DNA of 45,135 bases, taken from the sequence record PQ178821.1; one strand, given 5' to 3'. The notes under the pieces were generated by a model that worked only from the letters and a program-made list of their open reading frames with translations, ran no database searches and was not told the origin of the DNA. Within the stretch, counting starts at the first letter, position 1. Each line of letters begins with the position of its first letter. The position numbers were made by a program, and so were the translations under genes. Below are positions 40 to 45,135 of the stretch, piece by piece. The stretch is from Escherichia phage BMA1.

Positions 40-80
40 ATTGGTTGCGTCCGTGCCAGCACCCTGATATATTGGTTGCA
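40..80 (+). promoter_or_regulatory. Two direct copies of ATTGGTTGC motif (40..48, 71..79) upstream of first + strand gene
   Basis: Same 9-10-mer recurs in many intergenic regions of this window; GAGGA RBS follows at 88..92. Confidence 0.4.
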
Positions 81-103
81 CATCAACATGAGGACTGAAC
101 AAA

Positions 104-580
104 ATGAAATTTCCAGTAATCATCAAAGACGGTAAATCAACTATCACCTTCACCAGCAACGACCACGGCACTTACGAGAGCGGCGCGGCTTGCATGTCCC
201 CCCTGGAAGATATGATGATTCGTGTTAATTCAGGTAAAGCCTCAATTATTACCACCCTCGCGGAGAGTACCAAAATGAAAGCATTAATCTGGAATTACAC
301 AATGGCGGTGGCGAAGCTGTACGAAGCGAAGCACACAAACGGCAACGCAGACGACGCGCGCCAGGTTGTTATCCTGGCCCAGCAGGGTATCATGCACGCG
401 TTCGACAATATGTTTGCCAGCCTGGACGAACTGGAGCCGTTGCGGGTGGCAATCTGCGAATATGCGATGGCTTTTGCCCGCGAGCGCCTGGCGTATCGCT
501 TCGGGGTCGGTGAGACGGCAGCGACAAACGTCGCCCGGATTGCCGCCCAGCGCGAACTAGTCGCCCAGCTTGCGAAATAA
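104..580 (+). CDS. hypothetical protein (158 aa)
   Basis: ORF with GAGGA RBS 12 nt upstream; no recognisable motif. Confidence 0.6.
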   Translation: MKFPVIIKDGKSTITFTSNDHGTYESGAACMSPLEDMMIRVNSGKASIITTLAESTKMKALIWNYTMAVAKLYEAKHTNGNADDARQVVILAQQGIMHAFDNMFASLDELEPLRVAICEYAMAFARERLAYRFGVGETAATNVARIAAQRELVAQLAK

Positions 581-589
581 GGGGCCAAA

Positions 590-859
590 ATGAGCCGTAG
601 ACGAGCAAAACAGCTTTCGTGGCATATTCCACTGCATTGCATACGAATATGGGCTGAGAATGCGGTTGAGGGCGATTCTGTGTTCTGGTGTTATCGCGAT
701 GATGTGAAGCCACTGACACAGACTCGCTATTTGCACCAGTTCGCAGCACAACACGATTTCAGGGTGCGGGCTTCCTTGCAACCAATGGGGATTCGTATTA
801 CATTACGCCGGAAGCCCGCCGTTGAGCGGGTAGGAAAACACTGGAGACTGAGCAAATGA
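590..859 (+). CDS. hypothetical protein (89 aa)
   Basis: ORF tightly packed after previous gene with AAGGGG RBS. Confidence 0.5.
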   Translation: MSRRRAKQLSWHIPLHCIRIWAENAVEGDSVFWCYRDDVKPLTQTRYLHQFAAQHDFRVRASLQPMGIRITLRRKPAVERVGKHWRLSK

Positions 860-999
860 CACCAGCACTAATGGCGGGCTTCTCGCAGAAGTTTATTTCT
901 GTTGATGCCTGCATAGCAGATTATGAGATGGACGGCATCGCTACTGTGTGCGATGGCGACACGAAAACTGCCGATGAGATTGAGGAGACTGAGCAATGA
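856..999 (+). CDS. small hypothetical protein (47 aa)
   Basis: ATGA stop/start overlaps at both ends (856 and 996); GGAGACTGAGCAA sequence precedes both this and the next start codon. Confidence 0.3.
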   Translation: MTPALMAGFSQKFISVDACIADYEMDGIATVCDGDTKTADEIEETEQ

Positions 1000-1553
1000 A
1001 ATTACTATTCCGCCGTAAGCACGATGGTCGCATCCTGAAGCCGATCCAGACCCTGGATTCCTACGTCCGCCTACAAAACGCGGCAGGCAATCGGGTCTGG
1101 TGGGCAAAGAAGGACAAGCTGCCAGAAAACTTCGATATTGTCACGCATGATATAGAGCGCGGCGATGTGCTGCGTGATATTCGCGACGGTAGTATGTGGA
1201 TCGTTGAATATGTCGGTCTTCATGGCCTGCGTATGCAATCCCGCAAGGATGGCGTAGCAGGTATGACTTACTTCGGGCTGGTCAACTACGAGCGAGTGGG
1301 CCGCAAATACAGCCTGCGCGACCGCCAGCCGCATGAGCGCGTTGAGTTCCGCAAGACCCAACACGCCTACGCAACCTACGACGCCCACCAGGTGCAAGCG
1401 AAGATGGGCCGCGCCGTACACCAAATCGTCAATCGCTTTGATGCCGTGACAAACGCACAGCGCCATGCGCAGGAATACGGCGTTGGATTCATCCGGGTAG
1501 AACGAGACGGCAGCATGAAGGCCATCGACCCGCGCTCGGTGATTCTGAAATGA
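996..1553 (+). CDS. hypothetical protein (185 aa)
   Basis: ORF with GGAG RBS, translationally coupled to neighbours. Confidence 0.6.
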   Translation: MKLLFRRKHDGRILKPIQTLDSYVRLQNAAGNRVWWAKKDKLPENFDIVTHDIERGDVLRDIRDGSMWIVEYVGLHGLRMQSRKDGVAGMTYFGLVNYERVGRKYSLRDRQPHERVEFRKTQHAYATYDAHQVQAKMGRAVHQIVNRFDAVTNAQRHAQEYGVGFIRVERDGSMKAIDPRSVILK

Positions 1554-1760
1554 GTGCGACGATCCGAGATATGCTTCAGCATAACCGCTTTGAGATAGGC
1601 GGTCGGGTATTTCGCAATTACTTCGTGGCGCGTGCATGGGCGCGCCATATTGGCAAACCGGAAGGGGCAATTCGATGTTATACGTCTTCGCGGTAGTATG
1701 TGGCGGTAGTCTGGCGGCCCTGGTGCTGTTGGCGTCGGTTATTAGTCTGGTTAAATACCT

Positions 1761-2060
1761 ATGGGGCAGATTATGATTCATGATGTGATTTATTGGTTTG
1801 GTATGGTCAGCATGTTATGCCTGGTTACGGGAGTGCTGGGCGCAATATGGGTATTCCTGATTTGGCCCGCGGTGGAAGCTGCCAGCATTACCCGCATGAC
1901 GTTCCAGATATACAAACGCCGCGGCATAACGGAGCACCCGACCAGGCTGCGCATGTGGTGGCTGTGGTATCGGGATATGATTGGGGGCCGGATGTTCGAG
2001 GCCGTCCGATCGGAAGGATGGGAGTGGAAAGGCGTCGGCAAGTGGTCCGTTTTCGATTAA
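1761..2060 (+). CDS. hypothetical membrane protein (99 aa)
   Basis: N-terminal hydrophobic segment in translation; start uncertain (alternative ATG at 1773). Confidence 0.45.
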   Translation: MGQIMIHDVIYWFGMVSMLCLVTGVLGAIWVFLIWPAVEAASITRMTFQIYKRRGITEHPTRLRMWWLWYRDMIGGRMFEAVRSEGWEWKGVGKWSVFD

Positions 2061-2077
2061 TTATGCAAGCGTGATAT

Positions 2078-2112
2078 AGTCCCAGTGAGATAAAACTTAC
2101 TGGGACTTTTTT
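2078..2112 (+). terminator. rho-independent terminator candidate
   Basis: AGTCCCAGT ... ACTGGGACT stem followed by TTTTTT. Confidence 0.55.
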
Positions 2113-2403
2113 ATGGATAAGCTAAACGAGTGGCTATTCGCCCTGGCATGTCTGGCGGGTGGCTTCGTAGGCGCACGCATTCATGGTGAGGCTACGAAGG
2201 GGCCGCTAAACTTCGTTTTGTATGTTGTAGTTGGCTTCCTGTGTGCCATATTTGGCGCACCGGCTATCGCTGAGGGGGCTGGTTTGTCGGGTGAGCGCAC
2301 TGTCGCCGGTTTGGGGTTTGTAACCGCGATCTTCTGGATGCCAATCGCCGACCGGATCAGGGAGACTATTGCGTCGTTCCGACTTCCGGGGGGTGCAAAA
2401 TGA
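2113..2403 (+). CDS. putative holin (membrane protein, 96 aa)
   Basis: Multiple hydrophobic helices; immediately upstream of the lysozyme gene. Confidence 0.5.
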   Translation: MDKLNEWLFALACLAGGFVGARIHGEATKGPLNFVLYVVVGFLCAIFGAPAIAEGAGLSGERTVAGLGFVTAIFWMPIADRIRETIASFRLPGGAK

Positions 2404-2645
2404 TTATCTCCGTCCTGTTGTTTGTTATCATCGGGGCTTCGTCCCTGTTTAACGTGTATGCGCCGTCCGTCCGGGATGGCTTTTTCGGTAGGGTGCTGTA
2501 TCTGCTAACAGCAATGACCTGTATTGTCGGGCTGTTGCAAACAGGAGACGTATCTGATACCACCTGGACCGCGTTAATCTGGCTGTTTGCATTGCGCACC
2601 CTGCGTAATGCTGTTTTGAATGGGGTAAAACATGCGATTCAGTGA
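2400..2645 (+). CDS. membrane protein, holin/antiholin candidate (81 aa)
   Basis: Two hydrophobic segments; ATGA overlap with previous gene; overlaps endolysin start. Confidence 0.45.
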   Translation: MIISVLLFVIIGASSLFNVYAPSVRDGFFGRVLYLLTAMTCIVGLLQTGDVSDTTWTALIWLFALRTLRNAVLNGVKHAIQ

Positions 2646-3123
2646 TAACGGTCTACGATTTACGGCAGCATGGGAGGCTTTCAGCCCGGTGCCGTATTTC
2701 GCGACCAAGAAAGAGCAGGCCCGCGGCCTGTACACCTGGGGCTATGGGCATACTGGCACTAACCCGCCTCGAAGCATTACCCGCGCGGAAGCGCTGGAGC
2801 TACTCAAGCGAGATGTGGCGTATGCTGAAAACTGGGTGAACAAGTACGCACACCCGAGCATCAATCAGGCGCAATTCGACGCGCTGGTGGATCTGGTCAT
2901 CAATGCCGGTCCTGGTCCGATCATGCCGGACGACGTCGCCGGTGACTTCGACGATGCGGTCCGACTGGGAGACTGGGCGAAGGTCCGTGCTACTCTGCCA
3001 CAGTTCCGCAAGCAAGGCGGGGAAGTGCTGAAGGGGTTAGTCCGTCGATCAATCGGCAGACAGGCGTTGTTTGATGGTAAGCAGTGGGACGTTGCCGAGC
3101 GAATCGGTCGTAACGCGGTATAA
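2632..3123 (+). CDS. endolysin, T4-type lysozyme-like (163 aa)
   Basis: N-terminal E...YTWGYGHTG segment resembling the lysozyme catalytic region; position after holin candidates. Confidence 0.8.
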   Translation: MRFSDNGLRFTAAWEAFSPVPYFATKKEQARGLYTWGYGHTGTNPPRSITRAEALELLKRDVAYAENWVNKYAHPSINQAQFDALVDLVINAGPGPIMPDDVAGDFDDAVRLGDWAKVRATLPQFRKQGGEVLKGLVRRSIGRQALFDGKQWDVAERIGRNAV

Positions 3124-3139
3124 TACGGGGTGACACGAT

Positions 3140-3307: not shown

Positions 3308-3314
3308 ACAATCA

Positions 3315-3339
3315 AGCCCGGTATTATCCGGGCTTTTTA
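3315..3339 (+). terminator. rho-independent terminator candidate
   Basis: AAGCCCGG ... CCGGGCTT stem plus TTTTT. Confidence 0.5.
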
Positions 3340-3399
3340 TTGCCCACCTCAATAAGTCCCATGATATATTGTCCCCGGACCCATAATCAGGAAGTAATT

Positions 3400-4751: not shown

Positions 4752-4758
4752 CCCTCCT

Positions 4759-4784
4759 AGCCCGCCGATTTGGTGGGCTTTTTT
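4759..4784 (+). terminator. rho-independent terminator candidate
   Basis: AGCCCGCC / GGTGGGCT stem followed by TTTTTT. Confidence 0.5.
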
Positions 4785-9870: not shown

Positions 9871-10635
9871 TTAGCGCGGAATACCGCAGATTTCGTTTAA
9901 CGTCTTCACATCCAGCGCCACCGCCGTGGATTTGGGCTTGTCGGGGTATGGAATGAATTGTTCCACTTCAGGCCACGCCTTGATCAGCTTCTTATCGGTA
10001 TTGTGCATATCCAGCACGCCGGTAACAGTTAGTTTGAACGCGTCATACTTAGCACGCAACTCACGGCGGGCCTTGTCGTTACGGTCCAGGCGCTTACAGA
10101 AGTCATGATCTGCCGGTAAATCCACACGGCAGCGTGGCTTATAGATCGGCAGCGATTTTCCGTCCTCGTCCACTTCACACACTGAAGCCAACATAACTGT
10201 CTCGAACCCCGGAACGATATCGCCGAGATCAGGCGAGAGCTTATTCATATATTTCTCTTCCCAGTATCCGCGATGTACGCGGTATTGGCGACCGTCACCG
10301 CTCAAGGACAAGATGCGAACATTGCCGCCTGCGTTGATTTCAAAGGTGGCGTCGTAAACGCTGCCGATACCCTTCGGGCGATCTGTGTCATGGCGATATG
10401 TTGCCTCGTTGGTGTATACGCTGACGCTGTACATCTGCGACTGGTCGTCGCGGATTGCCTTGATATGCTCGCGGAGCGCTGCGAACGTGCGAATGCCTTC
10501 CGGCATACAGTCCAGCGTGATTGCGTACGCCAGGTCGCGAGAGTCCATCATGATTGTTTTGGCTTCGGTAGCGATTTCGTGGTCGCGCAGGATGTTAGCC
10601 AGGATCTGATTTTTAATGTCTTTCGTCAGTCTCAT
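9871..10635 (-). CDS. hypothetical protein (254 aa), antisense insert in head operon
   Basis: Long ORF on opposite strand to surrounding structural genes; no motif I can assign. Confidence 0.6.
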   Translation of the reverse strand: MRLTKDIKNQILANILRDHEIATEAKTIMMDSRDLAYAITLDCMPEGIRTFAALREHIKAIRDDQSQMYSVSVYTNEATYRHDTDRPKGIGSVYDATFEINAGGNVRILSLSGDGRQYRVHRGYWEEKYMNKLSPDLGDIVPGFETVMLASVCEVDEDGKSLPIYKPRCRVDLPADHDFCKRLDRNDKARRELRAKYDAFKLTVTGVLDMHNTDKKLIKAWPEVEQFIPYPDKPKSTAVALDVKTLNEICGIPR

Positions 10636-10674: not shown

Positions 10675-10989
10675 TTAGTTGAATTTGATGTTGCCACCGG
10701 TGGAAGTTAAGCGGGCACATACAGCTTCAACGGCATCGACGCACATGAAATCGTTAAAGGCTTCGACCAGGGCGTTTATGAAAGATGCCGGAACCAGGCC
10801 GCAAGCCGGATTATCGAATGTAGCGGAGTTGATCGCCGCTTTTGCCGCTTCAGAAGCATTCATGCTCTGGCACAGATTCAGCGCTTCCGCGTTACGCATT
10901 GCGTGAAAGGTAAAGGTATTCGCTACGGTAGCTTTATTGAAACGGGCCATTGCGGCGTCTACTGGAGTTGCTACGGTCATGTTAGTCAT
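10675..10989 (-). CDS. hypothetical protein (105 aa from ATG 10989)
   Basis: ORF upstream of the 254-aa gene on - strand, AAGGA RBS; intercistronic GGGGC-GAAA-GCCCC hairpin at 10652..10665. Confidence 0.5.
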   Translation of the reverse strand: MTNMTVATPVDAAMARFNKATVANTFTFHAMRNAEALNLCQSMNASEAAKAAINSATFDNPACGLVPASFINALVEAFNDFMCVDAVEAVCARLTSTGGNIKFN

Positions 10990-11017
10990 TTTGTTTTCCT
11001 TCATATCTCTGTTGGTG

Positions 11018-11041
11018 TGCAACCAATATACTGCAACCAAC
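11018..11041 (-). promoter_or_regulatory. Two direct ATTGGTTGC-type motifs (reverse orientation) upstream of - strand cassette
   Basis: TGCAACCAAT at 11018..11027 and TGCAACCAAC at 11032..11041. Confidence 0.4.
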
Positions 11042-11143
11042 ATACGCAACGCAAGCGAATTTTGCGATTATTTTTATCGCTGATAATATTAAGGCGTGAA
11101 GTCAAGCGGGTGGCCCGCTTTGCCACAATCCCAGGGGGATAGC

Positions 11144-13098: not shown

Positions 13099-13600
13099 AT
13101 GTNATGGCGACCCGCAAACCTTTGTTATTTATGCCGCTGCGCGAGGCGTTGAAATTACGCCGAGCGACGCAACGCGACACCTTACTATCGTTAATGACTT
13201 CCTTAACGGCATAGACTGGATCGGCGAACAAGCAGACCCGACCGGAATTGACGCATGGCCTCGCGTCAACTACCCGTCAGACGGTAAGCCGGTGCGAAAC
13301 ACGCTTACTGAAGATTTGGCAGTAGTTCCCGCGGGGCAGATTGTAGACTTCGCATCAATCCCTGTCGCCGTTGAGCAAGCCGTTTACCGGCTGGCAATGT
13401 TGGTGGCGGACGAGGTCGATATTTCTCCTGTTGGCAGTGGTAAGGAGACTATCCGCGAAACTGTTGGCCCGATCACGATGGAATATGACCCTGCGACGAT
13501 TGGTAGCGGTGTCTCGTTCCCGTGGTGGGATGGCTTGCTGGGCCACTGGATTGACTCCGACGGCAACGCAGCGGGTAATTTTGACGTATTCCGGGGGTGA
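13099..13600 (+). CDS. head-tail connector / head completion protein candidate, reading frame broken by ambiguous base at 13103
   Basis: AGGAG RBS and ATG 13099; long ORF continues in +1 frame to 13600; removing the N at 13103 joins them into one ~166-aa ORF. Confidence 0.45.
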
Positions 13601-16608: not shown

Positions 16609-16610
16609 TG

Positions 16611-16929
16611 AAGCGGGACAGGCGGGACGTCCCGTTTTGTCCCGCCTCTGTAAAACCACATATCTAATCACTTTTATTGCATAAACTCAAAGCGGGACAG
16701 GCGGGACGTCCCGTTTTGTCACACCCTGTAAATGTGCATACCTATGCAGATTTCGTGCATAAACCAAACGGGACAAAAAGCGGGACAAACACGAGGCGGG
16801 ACAAAGCGGGACAGCACCCCGTCCCCGCCAGTGCTGCCGCGGTTTTTAGCCGATCGGGACAGCGGGACAGCACCCCAGTCTTTCAGACTAGACGGGGGTC
16901 AATGGCCCCCCTCGTCTGAGACTGAATAA
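16611..16929. repeat. GCGGGACA iteron array with tandem ~76-bp subunits and terminal hairpin (copy 1)
   Basis: At least 9 GCGGGACA-like units; palindromes GCGGGACGTCCCG+TTTT at 16622..16638 and 16701..16717; 3' part near-identical to 44851..45025. Confidence 0.7.
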
Positions 16930-16992
16930 GGTTTGTTTTGAAATCGCTGATACAATATCCATCGGCAACTGCATAAAAAAGGGGACTGCATA

Positions 16993-21057: not shown

Positions 21058-21798
21058 ATGTTAACGAAGAAGGTTAAACGCGATATCGCCGCACACGTTG
21101 CGGCATGTCTGCCGGAAGAAGCCTGCGGCCTGGTTGTCATGGTGGGTCGCAAACAAGTGTTTATCCCGTGCCAGAACGTCTTCGAAGACCCCACCGGCGC
21201 TCGCTCGCGAAAAGACGCTTTCACGATTAGTGATATGGCCTGGATGGATGCCGAGGATATGGGCGACGTTGTGCGCGTAGTACACTCGCACCCTGGTCAG
21301 CGCGAGTTAACCCCGTCATTGGGCGACGTTAACGGATGCAACGGCAGCGGCGTCGTCTGGGCCATCACTAACGAATATGGCGACTTTATCGAGATCGACC
21401 CGGAAGACCCGCCGCTGGTAGGTCGCCGGTTTGTTCTCGGAATTACGGATTGTTATGGCCTCGTTATGGACTGGCACAAAAAGCAGGGCGTAAACCTGCC
21501 AGACTTCCGCGTACCGTACAACTGGTGGGAGACAGGCGAAAACCTGTATATGGACAATTGGTATGGCGCGGGCTTCCGTGAGTGTGAGGAGAATACGCCG
21601 GGGGCGATGGTCATCATGCAGATTAGCGCGCCAGTGCCTAACCATGCCGGAATCTACATTCCGGGCAACCAACTACTACACCATATCTACGGCAGCCTGT
21701 CGAGCGTGATACCCTTCCGGTCGGGATTTTTCCGGGACAATGTGGTTAAATGGGTACGTCATAAAGACCTACCGGGGAATATAACAGAATGGCAATGA
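21058..21798 (+). CDS. tail assembly protein K-like (MPN/JAMM plus NlpC/P60-like, 246 aa)
   Basis: HSHP...S..D JAMM-like motif and Cys/His segment (DCYGLV, NHAGIY). Confidence 0.8.
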   Translation: MLTKKVKRDIAAHVAACLPEEACGLVVMVGRKQVFIPCQNVFEDPTGARSRKDAFTISDMAWMDAEDMGDVVRVVHSHPGQRELTPSLGDVNGCNGSGVVWAITNEYGDFIEIDPEDPPLVGRRFVLGITDCYGLVMDWHKKQGVNLPDFRVPYNWWETGENLYMDNWYGAGFRECEENTPGAMVIMQISAPVPNHAGIYIPGNQLLHHIYGSLSSVIPFRSGFFRDNVVKWVRHKDLPGNITEWQ

Positions 21799-26854: not shown

Positions 26855-27073
26855 TTATTTGCAGGTTGTGCTTTTGAAGTGGTCCACTGACACATACTGG
26901 AAGTTGAACGGGTATCCCGCCCTAAGCATTTTGTGTCCGCTAAAATCGGCGACCCCAAACACGGGGACTGAGTAATCCATGCCGCTATTCTGGTATGTCG
27001 CGTCGCAGACTTTAGCTGGCATGTTGGCACAACCGGACAAAAGAACCGCACAAATCATAATTAAAGTTTTCAT
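26855..27073 (-). CDS. small lipoprotein (72 aa), superinfection-exclusion candidate
   Basis: AGGAGA RBS, signal peptide with lipobox LLSGC; antisense between J-like and tail fiber genes. Confidence 0.6.
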   Translation of the reverse strand: MKTLIMICAVLLSGCANMPAKVCDATYQNSGMDYSVPVFGVADFSGHKMLRAGYPFNFQYVSVDHFKSTTCK

Positions 27074-27127
27074 GGTATCATCTCCTATATTTGGTTGAGT
27101 TTTAGTATTACACCGCTCAATCAAGAA

Positions 27128-27137
27128 TGCAACCAAT
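27128..27137 (-). promoter_or_regulatory. ATTGGTTGCA motif (reverse orientation) upstream of lipoprotein gene
   Basis: TGCAACCAAT on + strand, 55 nt upstream of the - strand ATG. Confidence 0.35.
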
Positions 27138-30114: not shown

Positions 30115-30125
30115 GTTTACTATAG

Positions 30126-30147
30126 TGCAACCAACCTATTGGTTGCA
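30126..30147. promoter_or_regulatory. inverted repeat TGCAACCAA-ccta-TTGGTTGCA (operator-like palindrome)
   Basis: 9-bp arms, 4-bp spacer; overlaps stop of upstream gene and precedes start of downstream gene. Confidence 0.45.
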
Positions 30148-30606
30148 AGTGAATTTCGCAACGTTTATTGCGTAAATATTCGGGACCAAATCGCTACACG
30201 CCCGACGGATAGCTGCAATGTTCTTCGGGCAGTCTTCAATGATGACCAGTTCTGACACGTCCGCGTAGCAGACCATTTTGAACACTGCGCACGCCTTAAA
30301 CTCTGGCGGCGGGGTGTCATCCAGCATGTGGCGCATAAACAACCGGCCCGCCGGGAAGACCTCCAATTGCTCGGCGGTGGTGTCCCAACATTCTCGCTGC
30401 CGGTTTGTCAGATACGCTATCTCGAAGCCTTGCTCTTTGTACATGCGCAGCAGCGGCAGCATATCCATGTTCAGATCTTCGCGGACGTGCGCTTTGTGCC
30501 ACTTTGCCCAAAAGGTTGATTTCGTTTTTATCCCCGGCACCAGGTCGGCACGCGCATCGCTTGAACCGTTAATAACGCCATCCAAATCGCAAATCAGTAA
30601 TTTCAT
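30136..30606 (-). CDS. HAD-superfamily phosphatase-like protein (156 aa)
   Basis: N-terminal CDLDGV (HAD motif I-like), downstream YLTNR and ED segments; GAGAG RBS. Confidence 0.45.
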   Translation of the reverse strand: MKLLICDLDGVINGSSDARADLVPGIKTKSTFWAKWHKAHVREDLNMDMLPLLRMYKEQGFEIAYLTNRQRECWDTTAEQLEVFPAGRLFMRHMLDDTPPPEFKACAVFKMVCYADVSELVIIEDCPKNIAAIRRACSDLVPNIYAINVAKFTCNQ

Positions 30607-30827: not shown

Positions 30828-31293
30828 GGAGTTCTCCTTCGCTCATTATTTCAATTTGTGCGCTGCCAATGGGTGGCGCTTCGTCAAAGATTATCAATTG
30901 CTGGCACTTGTTATTGCTCGGACCGACTTCGCCGGTGACAGCATGTATAAATCGTATCCGCCAGTCCAGAAGAATTATCAGGTTTGCAGTCTTCCGGGCC
31001 AGCTTCGCCCACTTCGTCGACGTGTCCTGATTCAGTAGCATGACCGTCCGGCGTCCGTGCGCTGCGCACTTGACCCACGGCAGCGGGTCGGAATACGGCG
31101 GATTGCACCACTTCCACCCTTTCAACTCTGCCCAGTCCGCATCAAGCGCGCTATGTTCTGCCGTGAAGTAACGCGGTAGCAGATGATTGGCGTCGCTTGC
31201 CGCCATATCGTAACGGAATCGGAACTTACGGCGCAGCGGTTTAAATAAAGCTGGCGGCGTGCGCCAGCTATCTTTTTGCTCACTCTTCTGCAT
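30808..31293 (-). CDS. DNA N6-adenine methyltransferase, phage Dam-like (161 aa)
   Basis: WRTPP...LF N-terminus, AASDAN and NPPY (CNPPYSD) motifs. Confidence 0.8.
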   Translation of the reverse strand: MQKSEQKDSWRTPPALFKPLRRKFRFRYDMAASDANHLLPRYFTAEHSALDADWAELKGWKWCNPPYSDPLPWVKCAAHGRRTVMLLNQDTSTKWAKLARKTANLIILLDWRIRFIHAVTGEVGPSNNKCQQLIIFDEAPPIGSAQIEIMSEGELLEYLNR

Positions 31294-31744
31294 GATCTGG
31301 ATCTATCGCATACAGGGCAGTCTTTTCGCCTTTCTTCAGGATTCGCAGCAATCGCTGCGTCTCGGAGTCGCCTAAAGGGCGCGCGTCCGGGTAGAAGCTG
31401 CCGTTAGTGTTATTGCGCCACGCCACAAGCACCAGATCTTTCCGGTCGATCTTAGACTGGCGGCCTTTGGGGCGCACGTACTCCTCGGCCCGTTTGCAAT
31501 GCTCGCGCAGCGCATCGGCAGTTACGCGGTTTAGTGCAACGCTGGTTGTATATCCGGTGCGCTGCATAATCCCCATCAATTCGAAAAGCAGTTCGAAGCG
31601 CTCCTCTAACTCCTTGCGCATCTTTTCCTCTCCTTCATAGCTCGCCAGGTAGGTATCCGCCAGCGCGTTCGCCCGTTCGGCTTGCTCGCGGGCTTCGAGG
31701 CATTGCGCGGCCCAGTAATTTTTCTCTTCTTGTAAAATTTTCAT
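31280..31744 (-). CDS. hypothetical protein (154 aa)
   Basis: ORF with GGAGA RBS; charged helical sequence. Confidence 0.5.
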   Translation of the reverse strand: MKILQEEKNYWAAQCLEAREQAERANALADTYLASYEGEEKMRKELEERFELLFELMGIMQRTGYTTSVALNRVTADALREHCKRAEEYVRPKGRQSKIDRKDLVLVAWRNNTNGSFYPDARPLGDSETQRLLRILKKGEKTALYAIDPDHAEE

Positions 31745-31798
31745 CGTGTTGTCTCCAGGTATTAAAAAGGGCGTCCAAACCGGACACCCTTAAGATAA

Positions 31799-31825
31799 TG
31801 CAACCAATAGGATTATGCAACCAAT
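31799..31825 (-). promoter_or_regulatory. Two direct ATTGGTTGCA motifs (reverse orientation), 17 bp apart
   Basis: TGCAACCAAT at 31799..31808 and 31816..31825, upstream of - strand gene starting at 31744. Confidence 0.4.
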
Positions 31826-34266: not shown

Positions 34267-34485
34267 TTATTCCGCCTTTTTCCAGACTTCTGTCTCACTG
34301 TTCCAGTTCCTTTTTGTGGCGTCGTAGTTGGTGGCGTGTCCGATGTGCACACCGGTAGCCCGGAAGCTCTTAAACTTCTGCCAGCACACCGTCAACGGCA
34401 GCGGGTAACTCATGCCAGCAATAAACCACACGCGATCGCCCGGTTTACATTCGCCCAGCTTGGTGAGCCGGTAATGTTCTTTCAT
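34267..34485 (-). CDS. hypothetical protein (72 aa)
   Basis: GGGAG RBS; preceded on the - strand by a GC hairpin with T-run. Confidence 0.45.
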   Translation of the reverse strand: MKEHYRLTKLGECKPGDRVWFIAGMSYPLPLTVCWQKFKSFRATGVHIGHATNYDATKRNWNSETEVWKKAE

Positions 34486-34496
34486 CGTCATGTCTC

Positions 34497-34521
34497 CCAA
34501 AAATGGCGGGACAAGCCCGCC
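34497..34521 (-). terminator. hairpin plus T-run on - strand (terminator/attenuator)
   Basis: GGCGGG cttgt CCCGCC followed by TTTTT on the - strand. Confidence 0.45.
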
Positions 34522-34535
34522 GTATTTATTATTTA

Positions 34536-34709
34536 TTATTTTTGTTCCGCACGGTAGCGGCGCTGCCGTTCGCGCTCTTTCTTATTGCGGCACGATTTGC
34601 ACTCGGCCCGATACCCGTCGGGGCTACGCGCCGTCTTACCGGTGTACTTGTGGAACTGGGATAGCGGTTTAACGCAACCGCAATTACTGCAGCGTTTCTC
34701 TTCAATCAT
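34536..34709 (-). CDS. small zinc-ribbon-like protein (57 aa)
   Basis: CSNCGC ... CKSCRN Cys pairs; GAGGA RBS. Confidence 0.45.
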   Translation of the reverse strand: MIEEKRCSNCGCVKPLSQFHKYTGKTARSPDGYRAECKSCRNKKERERQRRYRAEQK

Positions 34710-34768
34710 TTCTAAAATCCTCGTTAGTGCTAACCTGCTCACTATACTGTTAAGCGACCAATTCAGCA

Positions 34769-35338
34769 NACAATAAATCNCNGTCGGCTATGTTGTCGAT
34801 GACGGCCGTAATATTCAACAAGCAACTCAACCACATCGTAGTTAACACAAAACACGTTAGCGTCGCTCTCCAGCGCGGCTATGCTGTCATTTTCTGATCC
34901 TGTTCCGACTACAACCACCAAGGCGGGCACTCGCCATTATTCTTCCTCCGGGGGCNAACGGCAGCGGGTAACTCATGCCAGCAATAAACCACACGCGATC
35001 GCCCGGTTTACATTCGCCCAGCTTGGTGAGCCGGTAATGTTCTTTCATCGTCATGTCTCCCAAAAATGGCGGGACAAGCCCGCCGTATTTATTATTTATT
35101 ATTTTTGTTCCGCACGGTAGCGGCGCTGCCGTTCGCGCTCTTTCTTATTGCGGCACGATTTGCACTCGGCCCGATACCCNGTCGGGGCTACGCGCCGTCT
35201 TACCGGTGTACTTGTGGAACTGGGATAGCGGTTTAACGCAACCGCAATTACTGCAGCGTTTCTCTTCAATCATTTCTAAAATCCTCGTTAGTGCTAACCT
35301 GCTCACTATACTGTTAAGCGACCAATTCAGCAACCAAT
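34769..35338. repeat. low-quality chimeric duplicate of 33.9-34.0 kb and 34.39-34.77 kb, probable assembly artifact
   Basis: Contains ambiguous bases at 34769, 34780, 34782, 34956, 35180; near-identical copies of the 34267 and 34536 genes with scattered mismatches. Confidence 0.6.
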
Positions 35339-35592
35339 AAATCACAGTCGGCTATGTTGTCGATGACGCGAACGTCAGCACCGCGGCGGGCCATTCGCTC
35401 ATGTTCTCGCACCTGGTGCGGCTTCGGTTTTCCGCCGGGGCGCTTCACTTCGACGAACACTATTTTGCCGTTGATGATGATAATCAGATCGGGCGCACCC
35501 GCGCGCCCCTCCCATGCCACTTTACGGCAGAATCCGCCTACCTCTTTCACCCGTCGCATCAGGTGGCTTTGAATCCGGCCTTCGGGTGTCAT
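35314..35592 (-). CDS. VRR-NUC domain nuclease (92 aa)
   Basis: GAPDLIII ... VFVEVKRPGGKP...Q pattern typical of VRR-NUC. Confidence 0.7.
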   Translation of the reverse strand: MTPEGRIQSHLMRRVKEVGGFCRKVAWEGRAGAPDLIIIINGKIVFVEVKRPGGKPKPHQVREHERMARRGADVRVIDNIADCDLLVAELVA

Positions 35593-35780: not shown

Positions 35781-35784
35781 AATC

Positions 35785-39081: not shown

Positions 39082-39171
39082 TTTCCAATTCCTCATTTTC
39101 ACATGTATCGGGGTTATTGGAAGCCACCCCGTTCGGCTTGGTTGCTAATCTACTTGGTTGCGCTTAAGCGG

Positions 39172-39414
39172 TCAAGCATTTTCATTAAAAAGATTTCTGG
39201 TCACGTAGTTGGTGGCGTTCTCGATCCAGCTTAACGGCGGGCGGTCGATGTTCTTTTTCACCCAATCGACGGCAACTTCGCGATAGCCGTCATCCAGCCA
39301 GCGGGTCGGATGGCGAATCATCCACGCCACCATTAACACGCCTTGCACGCAATGCAGGGTAAATCCCAGCGCACCGAGCAAAAACATCAATAAGATTGCA
39401 AATACTTTATTCAT
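39172..39414 (-). CDS. hypothetical membrane protein (80 aa)
   Basis: N-terminal hydrophobic helix. Confidence 0.4.
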   Translation of the reverse strand: MNKVFAILLMFLLGALGFTLHCVQGVLMVAWMIRHPTRWLDDGYREVAVDWVKKNIDRPPLSWIENATNYVTRNLFNENA

Positions 39415-41325: not shown

Positions 41326-41748
41326 TTAATCTTCCAGTTCGAAATAGGTTTCTACGATTTCTTTTAACTCTGTGTGGAAGTCTTCTACGTCGTCATCTTC
41401 CAGCTTGGCGATTGATTTGATCTCGAACGATTCCAGCAGGTCGTCGAATTCGTCGTTCGCGTCATCATCATCACCGCCTGCAATAATAGCGGCATACTGT
41501 TTTATTTCGTCGCGCATCTCCGCCAGCGGATCGGCATCTTTCGTACCTTTGCCTTTCGCGGGTGCTTTTTTAGTTTTCGCCGGGGCTTCGGCTTCATCGT
41601 CGTCATCTTCGACAACTTCTTTTTTGGCCTTAGACGGCTTCTTGTCTTCCTGCTTACCAACGGCAGCGCCAACGGTTTCATAATGTTTAGCGATGGTTTC
41701 CAGTGCTACTACGCCGCGAGTGATCAGGTTTACGATTTGCTCAAACAT
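41326..41748 (-). CDS. highly acidic small protein (140 aa from ATG 41748)
   Basis: GGAGA RBS; Asp/Glu clusters (DDDDEAEA, GGDDDDANDEFDD, EDDDVED) separated by Lys-rich linker; first gene of - strand operon. Confidence 0.5.
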   Translation of the reverse strand: MFEQIVNLITRGVVALETIAKHYETVGAAVGKQEDKKPSKAKKEVVEDDDDEAEAPAKTKKAPAKGKGTKDADPLAEMRDEIKQYAAIIAGGDDDDANDEFDDLLESFEIKSIAKLEDDDVEDFHTELKEIVETYFELED

Positions 41749-41952
41749 GGTATATCTCCGATTGGTTAAGTTTAGGTGTCGGCAGTTAACTTCGTCGGTG
41801 GCCTTAACATATTGCCCGGTTGCGCGTTCTCCCGTTCGGGTAGTGGACCGGGTTATATAATCACGGTTGGGAATCCTGACACTTCGATCCGGCCCCTGCG
41901 TTGCCCCTCTCCAGTTTGCGTCCTGCATCCTGTCGACGGGGTNGAATAATAG

Positions 41953-41962
41953 ATTGGTTGCA
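41953..41962 (+). promoter_or_regulatory. ATTGGTTGCA motif in divergent promoter region
   Basis: Between divergent operons (41749..42151). Confidence 0.35.
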
Positions 41963-42091
41963 GGATGGGTGTCAACAACTAATTTCAAAAAAAAAGCGCC
42001 GAGGCAAAATGCACCGGCGCTAACCAATAAGAGACAATGAGACGGGAATTATTATTACACGCGTGCGCGCCCGTTTCAATATCCAAAGGAT

Positions 42092-42120
42092 TTGACACCG
42101 TGCAGTTTTGGGTGTAGTTT
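42092..42120 (+). promoter_or_regulatory. sigma70-like promoter candidate (TTGACA-17-TAGTTT)
   Basis: Consensus -35 hexamer, 17-bp spacer, weak -10; 31 nt before the HTH gene start. Confidence 0.35.
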
Positions 42121-42151
42121 CGTTGGTCATTAACCAACTGGGGGCAGAACA

Positions 42152-42481
42152 ATGAATGTAAACGACGCAATCGAAATGTTAACTAAGACTGTTTGCAGTG
42201 AGACTAGCCGGTCCTGGGCGTATACCGATGCCGTGGGTGCGGTGCTATTTGAAATCGAACGTCTGCGACTTACCGAAAAAGAATTGCGCGCGAAGCTGGA
42301 ATTACTCAACGGTACGGCAGCCAGCAAGCTGCAAAAACACAATGAAGAAATGGAAGAATACAAAAAACAGGTTATCCGTCTACGTGAGGAAGGTAAATCC
42401 TGGGCGATGATTGCCGAGTTGACCGGAATTAATCAGAGCACAGTGCGCTCCTGGGTACGCAATAATAAAACTTCTAAGTAA
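42152..42481 (+). CDS. HTH DNA-binding protein (109 aa)
   Basis: C-terminal SWAMIAELTGINQSTVRSWV helix-turn-helix-like segment; first gene of rightward operon. Confidence 0.6.
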   Translation: MNVNDAIEMLTKTVCSETSRSWAYTDAVGAVLFEIERLRLTEKELRAKLELLNGTAASKLQKHNEEMEEYKKQVIRLREEGKSWAMIAELTGINQSTVRSWVRNNKTSK

Positions 42482-42491
42482 GGCCACGGCA

Positions 42492-44756
42492 ATGAGCTTA
42501 ATTAAATTCGCTGTAACAAGACCCGCTAAAAAAGGCGAAAAAGCCAGGGCGGAAAACTTCCAGATGACGACCGATGAATTTTTCGAATTTATCAAAGATG
42601 CGAAAGAGATATCGTCGGTGCATATCAACAAGACGGAAGATAAAGCCGAGTATGCGCGCCGCAAGCGTAAGGCCGATGGCATCGTAGCGTATACCTGTGA
42701 CGGCTTACGCCGCAAGACCAGTGCGGTGGACCGCTCGATCCTGTTCTTCGATATTGACCGTACCGACACCCGCACCCTACGCCGCTGCCGTAAGGCTTTC
42801 ATCGACGCGGGGCTGGAGCACGTATTTCACACCACAACCGGCGACCGCCACCCGCTGAAAGGCGGCACGCGTTGCGCTCGATTCCTGGTACTCACGGACA
42901 AGCCTGTACCGGCTGAAGACCTGGGCCGTGTCCAGTATGCGCTATTACACCAACTTGGTCTGTCAGATGTGGACTTCGACGATTGCACGAAAGACACAAA
43001 CCGCCTGATGTACCTGCCACACCAGCAGTCTGTTATTAAGTGCCACTACGGCAAGCGTGCCCGCGTCCGTCGTCTGCTTCGCCTGGCGGATAAGTTGGGC
43101 GTGGAGAAGGAGGAAGTACGCCGCGAGCTTACCCAGGGCGACGACGCAGTGGCAGACGGCATTCTGGACTGGTGCTTCCAGGCAGGATTCGAGGAGTTAT
43201 CTTCCGGTCGTGGTTATGAAGTGCCGTGCCCTAACGAACATCTGCACAGCGGCGAAGGGTCCACCGCTATCATGGTTAAGGATGGCGAGATCCGTTTCAA
43301 GTGTATGCACACCGGCAACGAGTGTTGCTCGGAACTGAACAGACACCAGCACCTGGCGCTACGTCTTATCGGGATCCCGGACCACCTGAACGTCGAACCG
43401 CACAATATGTCACGTAAGCAAATCGCCGCCATCCTTCCAGGACTGGACGACGAGGAAGTGGAATCGTGCTATGCGCATATCGTTGATGCGGTCGGAGACG
43501 GCGACGAGTACGGCGGATGTACGGACGCAGACCTGGACAACGAGCCGGTTGCCCTGTTCAGTAAGCACGACCCGATCATCGAGGGGTTGATTAACTTTAA
43601 ATCGACCTGGTATATGGCGGGCGAGTCGAACATCGGTAAATCGTTCTACGTGCTGGGGCAAATGGGCGCTGTTGCCGCCGGTATTCCGTTCGGTGGTGCG
43701 AAGGTTGTCCAGTCGCATTGCTTCTATTTCGATGCGGAAGGTGGCGAAGCCTCCAACCAGCGTAAGGAAGCATTGCAGATTAAATATGAGCACGACCTGG
43801 ACAAGCTGCACATTATCGACCTGCAATCACGCGGCTGGGATATCACCAGCAAATCCGGCTTGCGTGAAGTTATCAGCTTCATCAACCGCACCGCTAACGG
43901 CGAACCGGTTGGCCTGGTGGCGTTCGACTCACTCAACCAGACTGTTGCGTTGCGGTCCGCCGATGCTAAACCGTTCGACGAGAACAACGCCAGCGATATG
44001 GGCGAAGTGGTCAAGGCGCTGAAGGCCATTGCGGAAAACACAGGCGGCAGTGCGGGAGTCATCCACCACCCGGCTAAAGGTGCAAACGGCAGCAGAACCC
44101 CCCGCGGATCCGGCGCGCTGCATGGTGCTGTTGATTCTGCTTTCTTCCTGGAGCAACCAGACGACAACCAGCCCGGACAATTGAACCTGTATCATGAGAA
44201 GTCTCGTAACGGCATCAAGCAAGCGCCGCGCGGCTTCGTCCTGCTCAAGTGCAAGGTTAAGGTGGATCTCCGCAAGTCCGAGGCGTTCGAATCACACCAG
44301 TCCACCAGCGCCGGGCCTGACTTCGGCGATGTGGTTGCCGGTTGGGACGTCAAGCCAATTGCCTCCACGCCACGCGACGAGACGCTTTACCTCGTACCGG
44401 TCGCCCTGGCACCGTTCGCCATCGAACAGGCGAAGGCGGCGGGCAAGACCGCAGTTAAGGAAGAGAACGCCGCAGGCCCGCGCAACGAAAAAGAGAAAGT
44501 GCTTTATGCAGCGCTGGAAAAACTGATGGAAGATAACCCGGACCATACCGGATTCAGTAAATCGGCAATTGTCCGCCAGGCGGGATTGGCAAAAGGTGGC
44601 ACATCGACGAAGGCAATAGACGATATGGTCGAGCGCGGCGTGCTTGGGTTTTACACAGACCCACACACCGGGGCCATCTATGGGTCGTCTAATATCGTCA
44701 TCAAAACGAATATACCCATCACGCTTTCGGCGACCGATGACGACCTGAAAGATTAA
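42492..44756 (+). CDS. primase-helicase fusion (754 aa)
   Basis: N-terminal FFDIDRTD primase-type acidic motif; central Walker A GESNIGKS; size similar to phage primase-helicases. Confidence 0.8.
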   Translation: MSLIKFAVTRPAKKGEKARAENFQMTTDEFFEFIKDAKEISSVHINKTEDKAEYARRKRKADGIVAYTCDGLRRKTSAVDRSILFFDIDRTDTRTLRRCRKAFIDAGLEHVFHTTTGDRHPLKGGTRCARFLVLTDKPVPAEDLGRVQYALLHQLGLSDVDFDDCTKDTNRLMYLPHQQSVIKCHYGKRARVRRLLRLADKLGVEKEEVRRELTQGDDAVADGILDWCFQAGFEELSSGRGYEVPCPNEHLHSGEGSTAIMVKDGEIRFKCMHTGNECCSELNRHQHLALRLIGIPDHLNVEPHNMSRKQIAAILPGLDDEEVESCYAHIVDAVGDGDEYGGCTDADLDNEPVALFSKHDPIIEGLINFKSTWYMAGESNIGKSFYVLGQMGAVAAGIPFGGAKVVQSHCFYFDAEGGEASNQRKEALQIKYEHDLDKLHIIDLQSRGWDITSKSGLREVISFINRTANGEPVGLVAFDSLNQTVALRSADAKPFDENNASDMGEVVKALKAIAENTGGSAGVIHHPAKGANGSRTPRGSGALHGAVDSAFFLEQPDDNQPGQLNLYHEKSRNGIKQAPRGFVLLKCKVKVDLRKSEAFESHQSTSAGPDFGDVVAGWDVKPIASTPRDETLYLVPVALAPFAIEQAKAAGKTAVKEENAAGPRNEKEKVLYAALEKLMEDNPDHTGFSKSAIVRQAGLAKGGTSTKAIDDMVERGVLGFYTDPHTGAIYGSSNIVIKTNIPITLSATDDDLKD

Positions 44757-44767
44757 TTTGTGCGCGT

Positions 44768-44812
44768 ATTGGTTGCCATTTTGAGTGTTTTTATCTGGCC
44801 GCATTGGTTGCC
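44768..44812 (+). promoter_or_regulatory. Two direct ATTGGTTGCC motifs 35 bp apart
   Basis: 44768..44777 and 44803..44812, just after the primase-helicase stop. Confidence 0.4.
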
Positions 44813-44850
44813 GTGTAGTGTAAATATAATGAATAGTTATGCAATAAAAC

Positions 44851-45025
44851 TGCATAAACTAAGCGGGACAAAAAGCGGGACAGACAAGGGGCGGGACAAA
44901 GCGGGACAGCACCCCCGTCCCGCCCCGGATGGCGCGGCCTGGCGAGGAGCGGGACAGCGGGACAGCACCCCAGTCTTTCAGACTAGACGGGGGTCAATGG
45001 CCCCCCTCGTCTGAGACTGAATAAA
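44851..45025. repeat. GCGGGACA iteron array with terminal hairpin (copy 2)
   Basis: About 85% identical to 16756..16929 overall; last ~75 bp identical, including the imperfect hairpin. Confidence 0.7.
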
Positions 45026-45135
45026 ATCCGGGGATTGCAAAATACACGGCAGCATGTTGCGAAGTGCGGTCGCGGATGAACTAGGCAACCAATGCGGGTT
45101 GCATTATGCGGAGTGAAAAACGCAGTTTGCAGATT

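Follow-up and report, generated by a model that had tools for sequence, protein, structure and literature searches.

A recurrent 10-base word at early and middle promoters of Escherichia phage BMA1 is most likely a docking site for a DNA-binding regulator

The 10-base word ATTGGTTGCA lies on nearly all early and middle promoters of Escherichia phage BMA1 and beside its likely replication origin and, judging from the sequence, most likely serves a DNA-binding regulator as its docking site. Specifically, we give a probability of roughly 60% to a double-stranded DNA operator for a protein that controls the sigma-70-type promoters, read by the host RNA polymerase, of the early, replication and moron transcription units; the motif also brackets the origin-like region. 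The window analysed (PQ178821.1, 45,135 nucleotides) is a complete Dhillonvirus genome of the HK578/SSL-2009a type with E. coli as host. It is circularly permuted, the site at 45084 being followed by the early promoter at 45..73, and the phage is virulent, without a repressor or integrase module. The motif is a real, conserved signal, familiar in kind and apparently new to the literature, where our search found no description of it.

An exact scan found 13 copies of ATTGGTTGC on both strands, against 0.59 +/- 0.70 expected from 100 dinucleotide-preserving shuffles (maximum 2), and 18 copies of TTGGTTGC, against 2.24 +/- 1.41 (maximum 6), an 8- to 20-fold enrichment. A 14-column weight matrix gave 17 strong sites with scores of 12.7-21.0, set apart from nearly all other matches; the single overlap with this range was a match scoring 13.0 at 22505, in coding DNA. 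Thirteen of the 17 strong sites are located wholly within non-coding DNA, which by our gene map makes up 3,916 bases or 8.7% of the genome (binomial P = 3e-11), and the remaining four are found at the edges of genes or within a small early ORF. Every instance listed in the original prediction proved real (Table 1), and its claim of an intergenic location was borne out. The direct repeats that it placed 14-17 bp apart were found at 14, 16 and 17 bp. Other pairs are spaced by 12, 31 or 35 bp, the 12-bp spacing belonging to one inverted pair and one pair with a degenerate copy.

Table 1. Motif sites and associated features in the window. All promoters are predicted. "New" marks motif copies absent from the original list; all other sites confirm that list.
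Feature	Position	Strand	Context
Site ATTGGTTGCG	40..49	+	TTGCGT (45-50) is -35 of rightward early promoter; invariant across 7 dhillonviruses
Rightward early promoter	45..73	+	TTGCGT-17-TATATT
Site ATTGGTTGCA	71..80	+	Covers last 3 nt of -10 and +1 of 45..73 promoter; precedes ATG at 104 by 24 nt; within near-palindrome TTGGT-N5-AtCAA (72-86), exact in relatives
Site	777..786	-	New; inside small early ORF 590..859; + strand TTGCAA is -35 of internal rightward promoter TTGCAA-17-TACATT (776..804)
109-aa/Nmad5 gene pair	10675..11004 and 9871..10635		Leftward promoter
Site	11018..11027	-	Over -10/+1 of 109-aa/Nmad5 leftward promoter; forms exact palindrome TTGGT-N5-ACCAA (11012-11026)
Site GTTGGTTGCA	11032..11041	-	In 18-nt spacer of 109-aa/Nmad5 promoter; ends 1 nt before -10
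109-aa/Nmad5 promoter	11054..11025	leftward	TTGCGT-18-TATATT
Match, matrix score 11.9	21665-21672	-	New; inside tail gene; probably due to chance
Cor superinfection-exclusion gene	26855..27100		Own motif site at 27128..27137
Site	27128..27137	-	TTGCAT is -35 of cor promoter (16-nt spacer, TAATAC); 17 bp to divergent tail-fibre ATG (27154)
Site	30126..30135	-	In spacer of leftward promoter TTGCAA-18-TATAGT (30148..30119); ends 1 nt before -10
Site, inverted partner of 30126..30135	30138..30147	+	Arrangement TGCAACCAA-TAGG-TTGGTTGCA; reverse complement gives -35 TTGCAA of promoter 30148..30119; overlaps stop codon of 30136..30606
Site	31799..31808	-	In spacer; ends 1 nt before -10 TATCTT (31797..31792; TACATT or TATATT in relatives); upstream of gene 31280..31744
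Site	31816..31825	-	TTGCAT is -35 (17-nt spacer) of same promoter as 31799; copy deleted in phage HH3
Site ATTGGTTGCT	35329-35338	-	TTGCTG is -35 of TTGCTG-17-TATAGT (35333..35305), serving 57-aa zinc-ribbon gene
Degenerate partner ATTGGTCGCT	35317-35326	-	New; in spacer of promoter 35333..35305
Duplicate of 35317..35338 unit	34753-34774		New; bases partly N-masked; includes ATTGTNTGC at 34766-34774
Two CTTGGTTGC sites	39137-39146, 39153-39162	+	Opposite in direction to leftward promoter TTGACC-17-TAGATT (39175..39147); one in spacer, other at about +1
Site	41953..41962	+	In 18-nt spacer of leftward TTGACA-18-TATTAT (41975..41946), head of replication operon and genome's top sigma-70 match; + strand TTGCAG could be -35 for TAATTT (41980-41985)
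Palindrome TTGGT-CATTA-ACCAA	42123..42137	.	Two motif half-sites; begins 2 nt past -10 of promoter TTGACA-17-TAGTTT (42092..42120), serving HTH and helicase-primase genes; possible autoregulatory operator
Candidate binder	42152..42481	+	109-aa coiled-coil/HTH protein (Pfam, AlphaFold, fold matches)
Site ATTGGTTGCC	44768..44777	+	12 nt past helicase-primase stop codon; left flank of repeat-rich region B
Site ATTGGTTGCC	44803..44812	+	-35 position of promoter reading into GCGGGACA repeats; perfect -10 TATAAT at 44825-44830
Site	45084..45093	-	Right flank of region B, between GCGGGACA element and 45..73 early promoter

Strands were not given in the original list; the minus strand carries 9 of the 17 strong sites. 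Twelve are co-oriented with the downstream gene, in line with the predicted orientation, and nine of them have a start codon of the same orientation at a distance of 14-72 bp; the 39137/39153 pair and the sites at 777, 30138 and 45084 point the opposite way. The nine sites ahead of start codons would suit a signal acting at the RNA level in 5' leaders, for instance a translational repressor binding site or a processing site, and the sites at 71 and 11018 could fold as a 5-bp RNA hairpin. However, sites in a -35 or a spacer are excluded from their own promoter's transcript, the oppositely directed sites are antisense to local transcription, and an Rfam search gave no matches. We regard an RNA signal as extremely unlikely.

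All promoters named here, which we infer to be real, are sigma-70-like consensus matches of a kind that is genome-wide no more frequent than in shuffles, and a literature search found no dhillonvirus transcript map. On these promoters, the sites take up three layouts, in either orientation. In the first, TTGCAN of the site forms the -35, with a spacer of 16-18 nt. In the second, the site is inside the spacer and ends 1 nt short of the -10 (11032, 30126, 31799, and 41953 in reverse), and in the third it covers +1; overlap with the -10 or +1 is seen for some sites. The distance from site to -10 is 1-7 nt in the spacer layout and 17-18 nt where TTGCAN is the -35. Six of the 14 best sigma-70-like matches, the top one included, overlap sites, an overlap with promoter cores that is partly expected by chance in short intergenic regions. 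Independently transcribed cassettes (cor, the Nmad5 pair and a small gene in relatives) have sites of their own, and the late-operon promoter-like sequences at 4770, 11062, 15077 and 15864 have none. The motif marks early, replication and moron transcription units, not late ones.

The original prediction, partly supported as a whole, had proposed a promoter element or a regulator-binding site. The second agrees with sites that are intergenic, conserved and placed over sigma-70-like -35/-10 pairs heading transcription units. A fixed-position promoter element was not supported: the distance to the -10 varies, both orientations occur, a second promoter block is absent because no flanking positions around the motif are conserved, and the genome has no phage-encoded RNA polymerase gene. 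T4 MotA boxes are likewise phage-specific words of 9-10 bp near the -35 of sigma-70-dependent promoters of one temporal class, but they replace the -35, always in one orientation and at a set position of about -30, whereas the BMA1 sites vary in both; this phage showed no homologues of MotA or AsiA. The sites might also be one copied promoter design read by the sigma-70 holoenzyme with no extra factor, as a TTGCAN -35 with an upstream extension, and TTGCAN does stand 16-18 nt upstream of TAnnnT in at least six promoters (40, 27128, 31816, 35329, 41953, and 777 reversed). We consider this very unlikely: the sites at 71, 11018, 11032, 30126, 31799, 39137 and 39153 are reversed or placed in spacers or across the -10/+1 and cannot serve as a -35, the invariant ATTGG has no role in sigma-70 recognition, and the early promoter of Shemara-type phages has a -35 apart from the site, 3 nt further downstream. 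Reversed sites hold the same spacer and +1 positions on the 39175 promoter and in a cassette found only in relatives, which fits steric blocking and not contact-dependent activation. The motif behaves as an operator, with steric repression or timing as the simplest reading.

Conservation of the motif positions was also confirmed. The window and six other dhillonviruses carry 18-21 copies each at the same loci, and site columns are 97.1% identical, compared with 87.9% in other intergenic columns (invariant columns, 89% vs 67%; Mann-Whitney P = 7e-10). The claim that the motif is phage-specific held for the full 10-mer, which is typical of dhillonviruses, but not for its 8-mer core, which is common to distant Guernseyvirinae-type relatives. 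There, the core GTTGG(T/C)TGC is found at promoters and adjoining the helicase-primase gene in phages with no detectable homologue of the 42152-42481 protein and a Cro/XRE-type HTH instead.

One alternative concerns replication. The 8-mer could be recognised by the helicase-primase, through its conserved N-terminal primase/zinc module, or by another conserved replisome protein as an origin-flanking loading or priming site; promoter copies would then couple transcription to initiation or let the initiator damp early promoters. TTGG(T/C)TGC clusters occur at or just past the helicase-primase 3' end in lineages whose helicase-primases are only 37-49% identical: the Tsm2 gene holds four copies in three reading frames, L165 has about eight in 130 bp, and the L145 group and Shemara-type loci have two to four. 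Located within the coding 3' end, the Tsm2 and L165 clusters resemble origin repeats more than operators. Sixteen of the 25 loci without the HTH protein have at least two copies between -200 and +700 of the stop codon (about 0.06 expected), and five window sites bracket region B with its GCGGGACA repeats. The proteins common to all motif-bearing lineages are the helicase-primase, DNA polymerase, ssDNA-binding protein, exonuclease and a gp46-like protein. Among them, the helicase-primase is the sole candidate with evident scope for sequence-specific recognition. Invariant residues are numerous in its N-terminal half, DxD and a Cys/His cluster among them. DnaA boxes, SV40 T-antigen GAGGC sites and phage P4 alpha octamer iterons are similarly short asymmetric words in irregular clusters by an initiator gene and also on promoters, and P4 alpha resembles the BMA1 helicase-primase in its layout of primase, helicase and C-terminal winged helix. 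Nevertheless, the winged helix of the helicase-primase co-varies with lineage-specific G-rich repeats and not with the motif, so that the classical origin-binding domain appears already assigned. Most window sites lie far from region B and precisely on promoter cores, their spacing and orientation are irregular, and Jerseyvirus SETP3 and Kagunavirus Schulenburg, with helicase-primases 33-34% identical, show background counts only. A replication-linked role is unlikely in our judgement.

Improbable, too, is a host protein conserved across Enterobacterales that the phages have turned to their own use, for repression, for activation or as an accessory factor at the origin. Phage lineages with non-homologous small regulators (sigma4/LuxR-like vs Cro/XRE HTH), and with hosts spanning Escherichia, Salmonella, Serratia and Sodalis, share an almost unchanged core, and the motif flanks lineage-specific repeats as host-factor boxes, such as DnaA or IHF sites, flank plasmid iterons. 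In E. coli, the sites of PutA and CytR contain GTTGCA, and TTGGT is a half-site for regulators of the GntR family. However, we know of no E. coli factor with the full 9-10-bp specificity, the Shemara-type variant TTGGCTGC disrupts GTTGCA, and coliphage T1 has 7 of its 8 copies in coding DNA with no promoter pattern. The 5' flank is A in lineages with the HTH protein and G in those without, which a single host protein would not predict.

The binder of the proposed operator could be the 42152-42481 protein or some other factor, of phage or host origin. The most likely one in BMA1 is the predicted coiled-coil/HTH protein, whose gene adjoins the main divergent promoters. Its N-terminus is variable; one long helix spans residues 21-79, and the C-terminal HTH is assigned to the sigma-70 region 4/LuxR-GerE/resolvase type by an AlphaFold model (pLDDT 85.6), fold matches and Pfam, where HTH_23 and Sigma70_r4_2 both score above cutoff. 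Across 21 homologues the HTH is invariant and the N-terminus strongly divergent. The NarL/GerE and resolvase fold class binds short asymmetric sites in varied arrangements. The heptamer or 12-mer sites of NarL/GerE-type proteins likewise occur alone or as pairs, direct or inverted, vary in spacing and promoter position, and are bound by a tri-helical HTH, the fold class also predicted for the BMA1 protein. In contrast, the BMA1 candidate has a coiled-coil N-terminal half in place of a receiver or ligand domain, and the motif is present in relatives without the protein, which may therefore not be the binder, or not the sole one.

In the lambdoid Cro/CI operators OL and OR, too, divergent early promoters have their -35, spacer and +1 overlapped by several short sites, a small HTH regulator gene lies there and autoregulation is plausible. 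But the lambdoid sites are 17-bp pseudo-palindromes at two loci, whereas BMA1 has asymmetric 10-mers at about nine, a virulent lifestyle and a candidate HTH that is sigma4/LuxR-like and not Cro-like.

From these patterns we infer protein binding, a repressive effect and the binder's identity. The regulator would bind each 10-bp site with one DNA-binding domain, usually at two sites per promoter, and an occupied site over the -35, the spacer by the -10 or the start would block RNA polymerase. The arrangement at 44803, a site at a weak -35 with a perfect -10 downstream, would also suit an activator. The half-site palindrome TTGGT-N5-ACCAA at +1 may give control over the regulator's own operon. 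The early, replication and moron units would thus be lowered together, as shut-off or dosage control, while the site-free late promoters would stay active.

The window is a complete, circularly permuted Dhillonvirus genome of 45,135 bp, of the HK578/SSL-2009a/SO-1 type of virulent E. coli siphoviruses, and more than 140 deposited phages are 91-93% identical to it over nearly its full length. We transferred the annotation of the dhillonvirus HH3 to the window with an ORF check, and found that 91.3% of it is coding. The gene map and the other features are collected in the table.

Genes and other features of the BMA1 genome, with positions in the window
Feature	Position	Strand or direction	Basis or remark
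Small early, lysis, terminase, head and tail genes	104 to 26836	rightward	gene map
Three short cassettes: 109-aa/Nmad5 pair, cor, gp26/27		leftward	gene map
Nmad5 (nucleotide modification associated domain 5) protein gene	9871-10635	-	within structural region
Long replication operon	41748 down to 28933	leftward	gene map
First gene of the leftward operon	41326-41748	-
109-aa HTH protein and 754-aa helicase-primase pair	42152-44756	rightward	gene map
HTH protein gene	42152-42481	+
Helicase-primase gene	42492-44756	+
Non-coding region, 480 bp	spans window ends		gene map
Additional motif copy	777-786	-	beyond the original list
Additional motif copy	35317-35326	-	beyond the original list; degenerate partner
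Additional motif copy	34766-34774		beyond the original list; N-masked duplicate
Tandem duplication, ~560 bp	34480-35345		several N bases
Predicted promoter TTGACA-18-TATTAT	41975..41946		reversed site in spacer
Predicted promoter TTGACC-17-TAGATT	39175..39147		reversed sites
Terminator-like hairpin and T-run	31762-31790	-
Putative small transcript, ~55 nt	41985-42079	-	leftward
Its promoter-like sequence	42079..42051
~170-bp element, first copy	16609-16992		5' of tape-measure gene
~170-bp element, second copy	44850-45020		3' of helicase-primase gene
Palindrome TTATGCA-N7/8-TGCATAA	44830-44860

The original prediction held that a ten-base word, the motif, recurs throughout the genome and lies in intergenic regions, and a full scan bore out both claims. 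The window contains 13 copies of ATTGGTTGC against 0.59 expected and 18 copies of TTGGTTGC against 2.24 expected, with all shuffles far below. The aligned instances define a 10-bp word, a-TTGGTTGC-a, and no conserved column was found outside it within 12-14 nt on either side. A weight-matrix scan of the window set 17 strong sites apart from the background, the exception being a coding match of 13.0 at 22505. Although non-coding DNA makes up only 8.7% of the genome, 13/17 strong sites are wholly intergenic (P = 3e-11), and the other four lie at the edge of a gene or within a short early ORF. A copy with a lower matrix score in a tail gene (21665) is probably due to chance.

The tandem duplication does not occur in relatives. 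It copies a 57-aa zinc-ribbon gene together with its site-bearing promoter and terminator hairpin, contains helicase gene fragments, and probably reflects an error of assembly. N bases stand at 13103, 34769, 34780, 34782, 34956, 35180, 41057 and 41943. Two further words, related to each other, recur across the whole window: ACGGCAGC, with 24 copies on the + strand and 7 on the - strand, mainly in coding DNA, and CGCTGCCG, with 34 copies on both strands.

Conservation of motif positions in related phages, raised as a check in the original prediction, was found in six dhillonviruses (HH3, jat, CHD5UKE2, GeorgBuechner, SO-1, HK578), which have 18-21 copies each, placed at matching loci. When all intergenic regions were aligned, columns within sites were 97.1% identical to the window compared with 87.9% for other columns, and 89% of the columns in sites were invariant compared with 67% elsewhere in intergenic DNA (P = 7e-10). 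Judged from these alignments, the motif sites are under selection. Indels shift whole sites among dhillonviruses: one copy is missing from the 31816 locus of HH3, GeorgBuechner has an additional copy 3' of the helicase-primase gene, and a small gene of relatives that is missing from the window near 3308-3399 brings two sites of its own.

Every site cluster overlaps a sigma-70-like promoter that heads a transcription unit; these promoters are consensus predictions, and such matches are no more frequent genome-wide than in shuffles. At least 13 sites overlap a predicted -35, spacer, -10 or +1, and 6 of the 14 best promoter matches in the genome overlap sites. The site supplies TTGCAN as the -35, 16-18 nt 5' of TAnnnT, at 40, 27128, 31816, 35329, 41953 and, reversed, 777. 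At 11032, 30126 and 31799 it lies in the spacer and ends 1 nt short of the -10, and a reversed site takes the same spacer position in TTGACA-18-TATTAT, the strongest promoter match in the genome. Sites at 71 and 11018 cover the -10/+1. In the TTGACC-17-TAGATT promoter, and also in the extra cassette of relatives, these spacer and +1 positions are taken by reversed sites. A half-site palindrome, TTGGT-N5-ACCAA, follows just 3' of the -10 in the promoters of the early operon, the Nmad5 pair and the HTH/helicase-primase operon. No sites were found at promoter-like sequences 5' of the late operons (4770, 11062, 15077, 15864). The Nmad5 gene and its 109-aa partner, leftward within the structural region, are cotranscribed from a predicted site-bearing promoter.

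Two further structures were seen beside these promoters. The terminator-like hairpin lies immediately 3' of the predicted -10 of the 31797 promoter; it would halt upstream read-through, and transcripts begun at that promoter would miss its 5' arm. The putative small transcript has a promoter-like TTGAAA-17-AATAAT with a TG extension, followed by a strong terminator (AGCGCCGG...CGGCGCT + T9). Its stretch is kept in all aligned dhillonviruses and includes TTATTGGTTAGC, a near-copy of the motif.

The original prediction offered a promoter element or a regulator-binding site. A sigma-70 -35 is a TTGACA-like hexamer 16-18 nt 5' of a TAnnnT -10 in a single orientation; about 6 of the 17 sites fit through TTGCAN, and the spacer, +1 and reversed sites do not. 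The reverse complement of the motif begins TGCAAC, the basis for considering an ECF-type promoter. Two-block promoters (MotA-box, alternative or ECF sigma) were rejected since there is no second block, the distance to the -10 runs from overlap to 18 nt, and 5/17 sites are reversed. Sigma-54 promoters have GG and GC 10 nt apart (-24/-12); these are only 2 nt apart within the motif, and pairs of sites do not bring them to that distance. An RNA polymerase gene is missing from the phage, which speaks against a phage polymerase promoter: none was found in the relatives' annotation or in Pfam/PHROG scans of unassigned ORFs, and the large proteins were identified as DNA polymerase I, helicase-primase, nucleases and tail proteins. 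An RNA signal is disfavoured, since there are sites 5' of their own transcription start or antisense, and an Rfam covariance-model search of the whole window gave zero matches at gathering thresholds.

The promoter half of the original prediction found no support, and the regulator-site half did: on predicted promoters, at least 13 sites lie over the core (-35 to +10), as operators do. We conclude that the motif is a real, biologically meaningful and conserved operator-like word that defines the dhillonvirus non-late regulon and brackets an origin-like region. That it is the DNA site of a sequence-specific protein, of operator type, we hold at a probability of about 0.6. With sites on the core promoter in both orientations, the simplest effect common to all of them would be steric repression. 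The bound protein would block these promoters, and early, middle and moron units would be shut off jointly or controlled in dosage. Some promoters with a weak -35, 44803 for one, may instead be activated.

To identify a candidate reader, we examined the HTH protein, the product of 42152-42481 and the sole recognisable sequence-specific regulator in the phage. Its C-terminus matches Pfam HTH_23 and Sigma70_r4_2, both above cutoff. In the AlphaFold model (pLDDT 85.6), residues 21-79 form a long helix and an HTH comes after it; this predicted HTH superposes with the DNA-binding domains of resolvase, LuxR/GerE/NarL and DeoR. The HTH half does not vary among 21 homologues, whereas the N-terminus is highly variable; the HK578-type variant has an unchanged recognition helix pattern. 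Proteins of this fold class bind short, asymmetric sites that may be arranged in various ways, in keeping with the grammar of the motif. All loci with the A-flanked 10-mer (dhillonviruses and the fetched locus L142) encode the HTH protein, and the 8-mer core persists in lineages without it. We consider the HTH protein a possible but tentative reader of the motif.

We compared fetched loci encoding helicase-primase relatives. The core TTGG(T/C)TGC recurs where the helicase-primase is only 37-49% identical and an HTH-protein homologue is absent, and such lineages encode a Cro/XRE-type HTH at the corresponding position. Tsm2, Shemara and the 48%-identity group gave no homologue of the HTH domain, even in an unfiltered profile search. 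The promoter-like sequences of the 48%-identity group likewise have sites within the spacer, at the -35 or in the leader. Dhillonviruses have A, not G, as the 5' flank, and Shemara-type phages carry the variant TGTTGGCTGC. The pattern was absent from SETP3, Schulenburg and T1.

Other phage proteins offered no better candidate by phyletic profiling and scans of small conserved proteins. A gp46-like protein, with an AT-hook-like linker and acidic C-terminus, was rejected as binder since it also occurs in motif-less lineages; a gp45-like protein is small and beta-rich. PDB sequence searches with these two and the helicase-primase gave nothing useful. Clustering ORF presence against motif presence over 24 loci singled out holins alone. 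The leftward operon opens with the gene of a conserved protein that combines an N-terminal helix, a K/P/E-rich linker (AT-hook-like PKRGRK in relatives) and a conserved, very acidic C-terminal domain; the protein is found in all lineages examined, motif-less ones included. A tandem-site scan of viral contigs returned mostly unrelated contigs with chance or array matches. Among IMG/VR contigs, mostly of sample 3300045988, four of 27-78 kb that are not dhillonvirus-like (L012, L020, L049, L081) carry 54-bp-period tandem arrays with ATTGGTTGC.

The motif might instead be linked to replication. In nearly all lineages without the HTH protein, copies cluster at or just past the 3' end of the helicase-primase gene. 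A dense repeat array at the initiator gene is seen in Tsm2, with four copies inside the helicase-primase gene in three reading frames, and in L165, with about eight copies within 130 bp. The window shows this in part: five sites lie around the repeat-rich, origin-like stretch 3' of that gene, and 12/17 are located away from it. The conserved module runs from the gene end through sites, TTATGCA-N8-TGCATAA, lineage-specific G-rich direct repeats and a long hairpin to the early promoter. The N-terminal domain of the helicase-primase contains an invariant DxD and, at about residues 246-287, a Cys/His cluster; the helicase core of the protein resembles RSF1010 RepA, and a winged helix is predicted at its C-terminus, a layout like that of P4 alpha but assembled from different parts. 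Changes in the recognition helix of this winged helix go with changes in the G-rich repeats (GCGGGACA, TTGCGAGT, GGGGAGA, CGGACAA, TCCGACA, AGGGATA, GGGGAT), while the motif stays constant and so lacks the co-variation of iteron and initiator. The winged helix was therefore rejected as motif reader. We regard the replication-linked reading as unlikely.

Two ~170-bp elements, both annotated as repeat regions in the SO-1 record, carry six or seven (A/G)CGGGACA direct repeats and a long hairpin (CAGTCTTTCAGACTAGACGGGGG...CCCCCCTCGTCTGAGACTG). The repeat word and the recognition helix vary together across relatives, and for this reason these G-rich repeats, rather than ATTGGTTGCA, are probably the origin iterons. 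The TTATGCA palindrome, within GAATAGTTATGCA...TGCATAAAC, adjoins the G-rich repeats. It also occurs in L128 (38205-38240) and just 3' of the helicase-primase gene in L142, L162 and L169, and is kept in lineages with helicase-primases only 37-45% identical.

Since the core occurs without the HTH protein and the winged helix tracks other repeats, the reader may be the HTH protein (in dhillonviruses), a conserved replisome part or a host protein; we judge a host factor, too, to be improbable. A bolder idea, which we rate as a long shot, is that GTTGG(T/C)TGC is an ancient cis-element common to the entire Dhillonvirus-Guernseyvirinae supergroup, read by the replication machinery and not by lineage-swapped small HTH regulators. 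The candidate reader would then be a conserved replication part, such as the primase/zinc module of the helicase-primase. The origin-firing protein would also occupy early and middle promoters and couple transcription shut-off to the onset of replication, like SV40 T-antigen or DnaA.

Returning to the operator, shared-operator phage regulons are well known, and by analogy the motif is ordinary in kind, a phage regulon with a common operator. We found no description of it in the literature on dhillonvirus promoters and transcriptomes, on HK578/SSL-2009a/SO-1 or on Guernseyvirinae, and no dhillonvirus regulatory or transcript map in the literature searched. Dhillonviruses are common E. coli phages, present in the BASEL collection and used in defence-system studies and therapy-oriented engineering. 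The motif map can aid such engineering, either to build regulated insertion sites or to avoid disrupting sites. About nine early, middle and moron promoters share this one conserved word, which gives a first-draft temporal regulon and, with the candidate reader, a concrete putative protein-DNA pair. The noteworthy part is that the word persists across lineages despite regulator replacement. Since the core survives exchange of the neighbouring regulator and flanks repeats that co-vary with the winged helix, who reads the site becomes a directly testable question.
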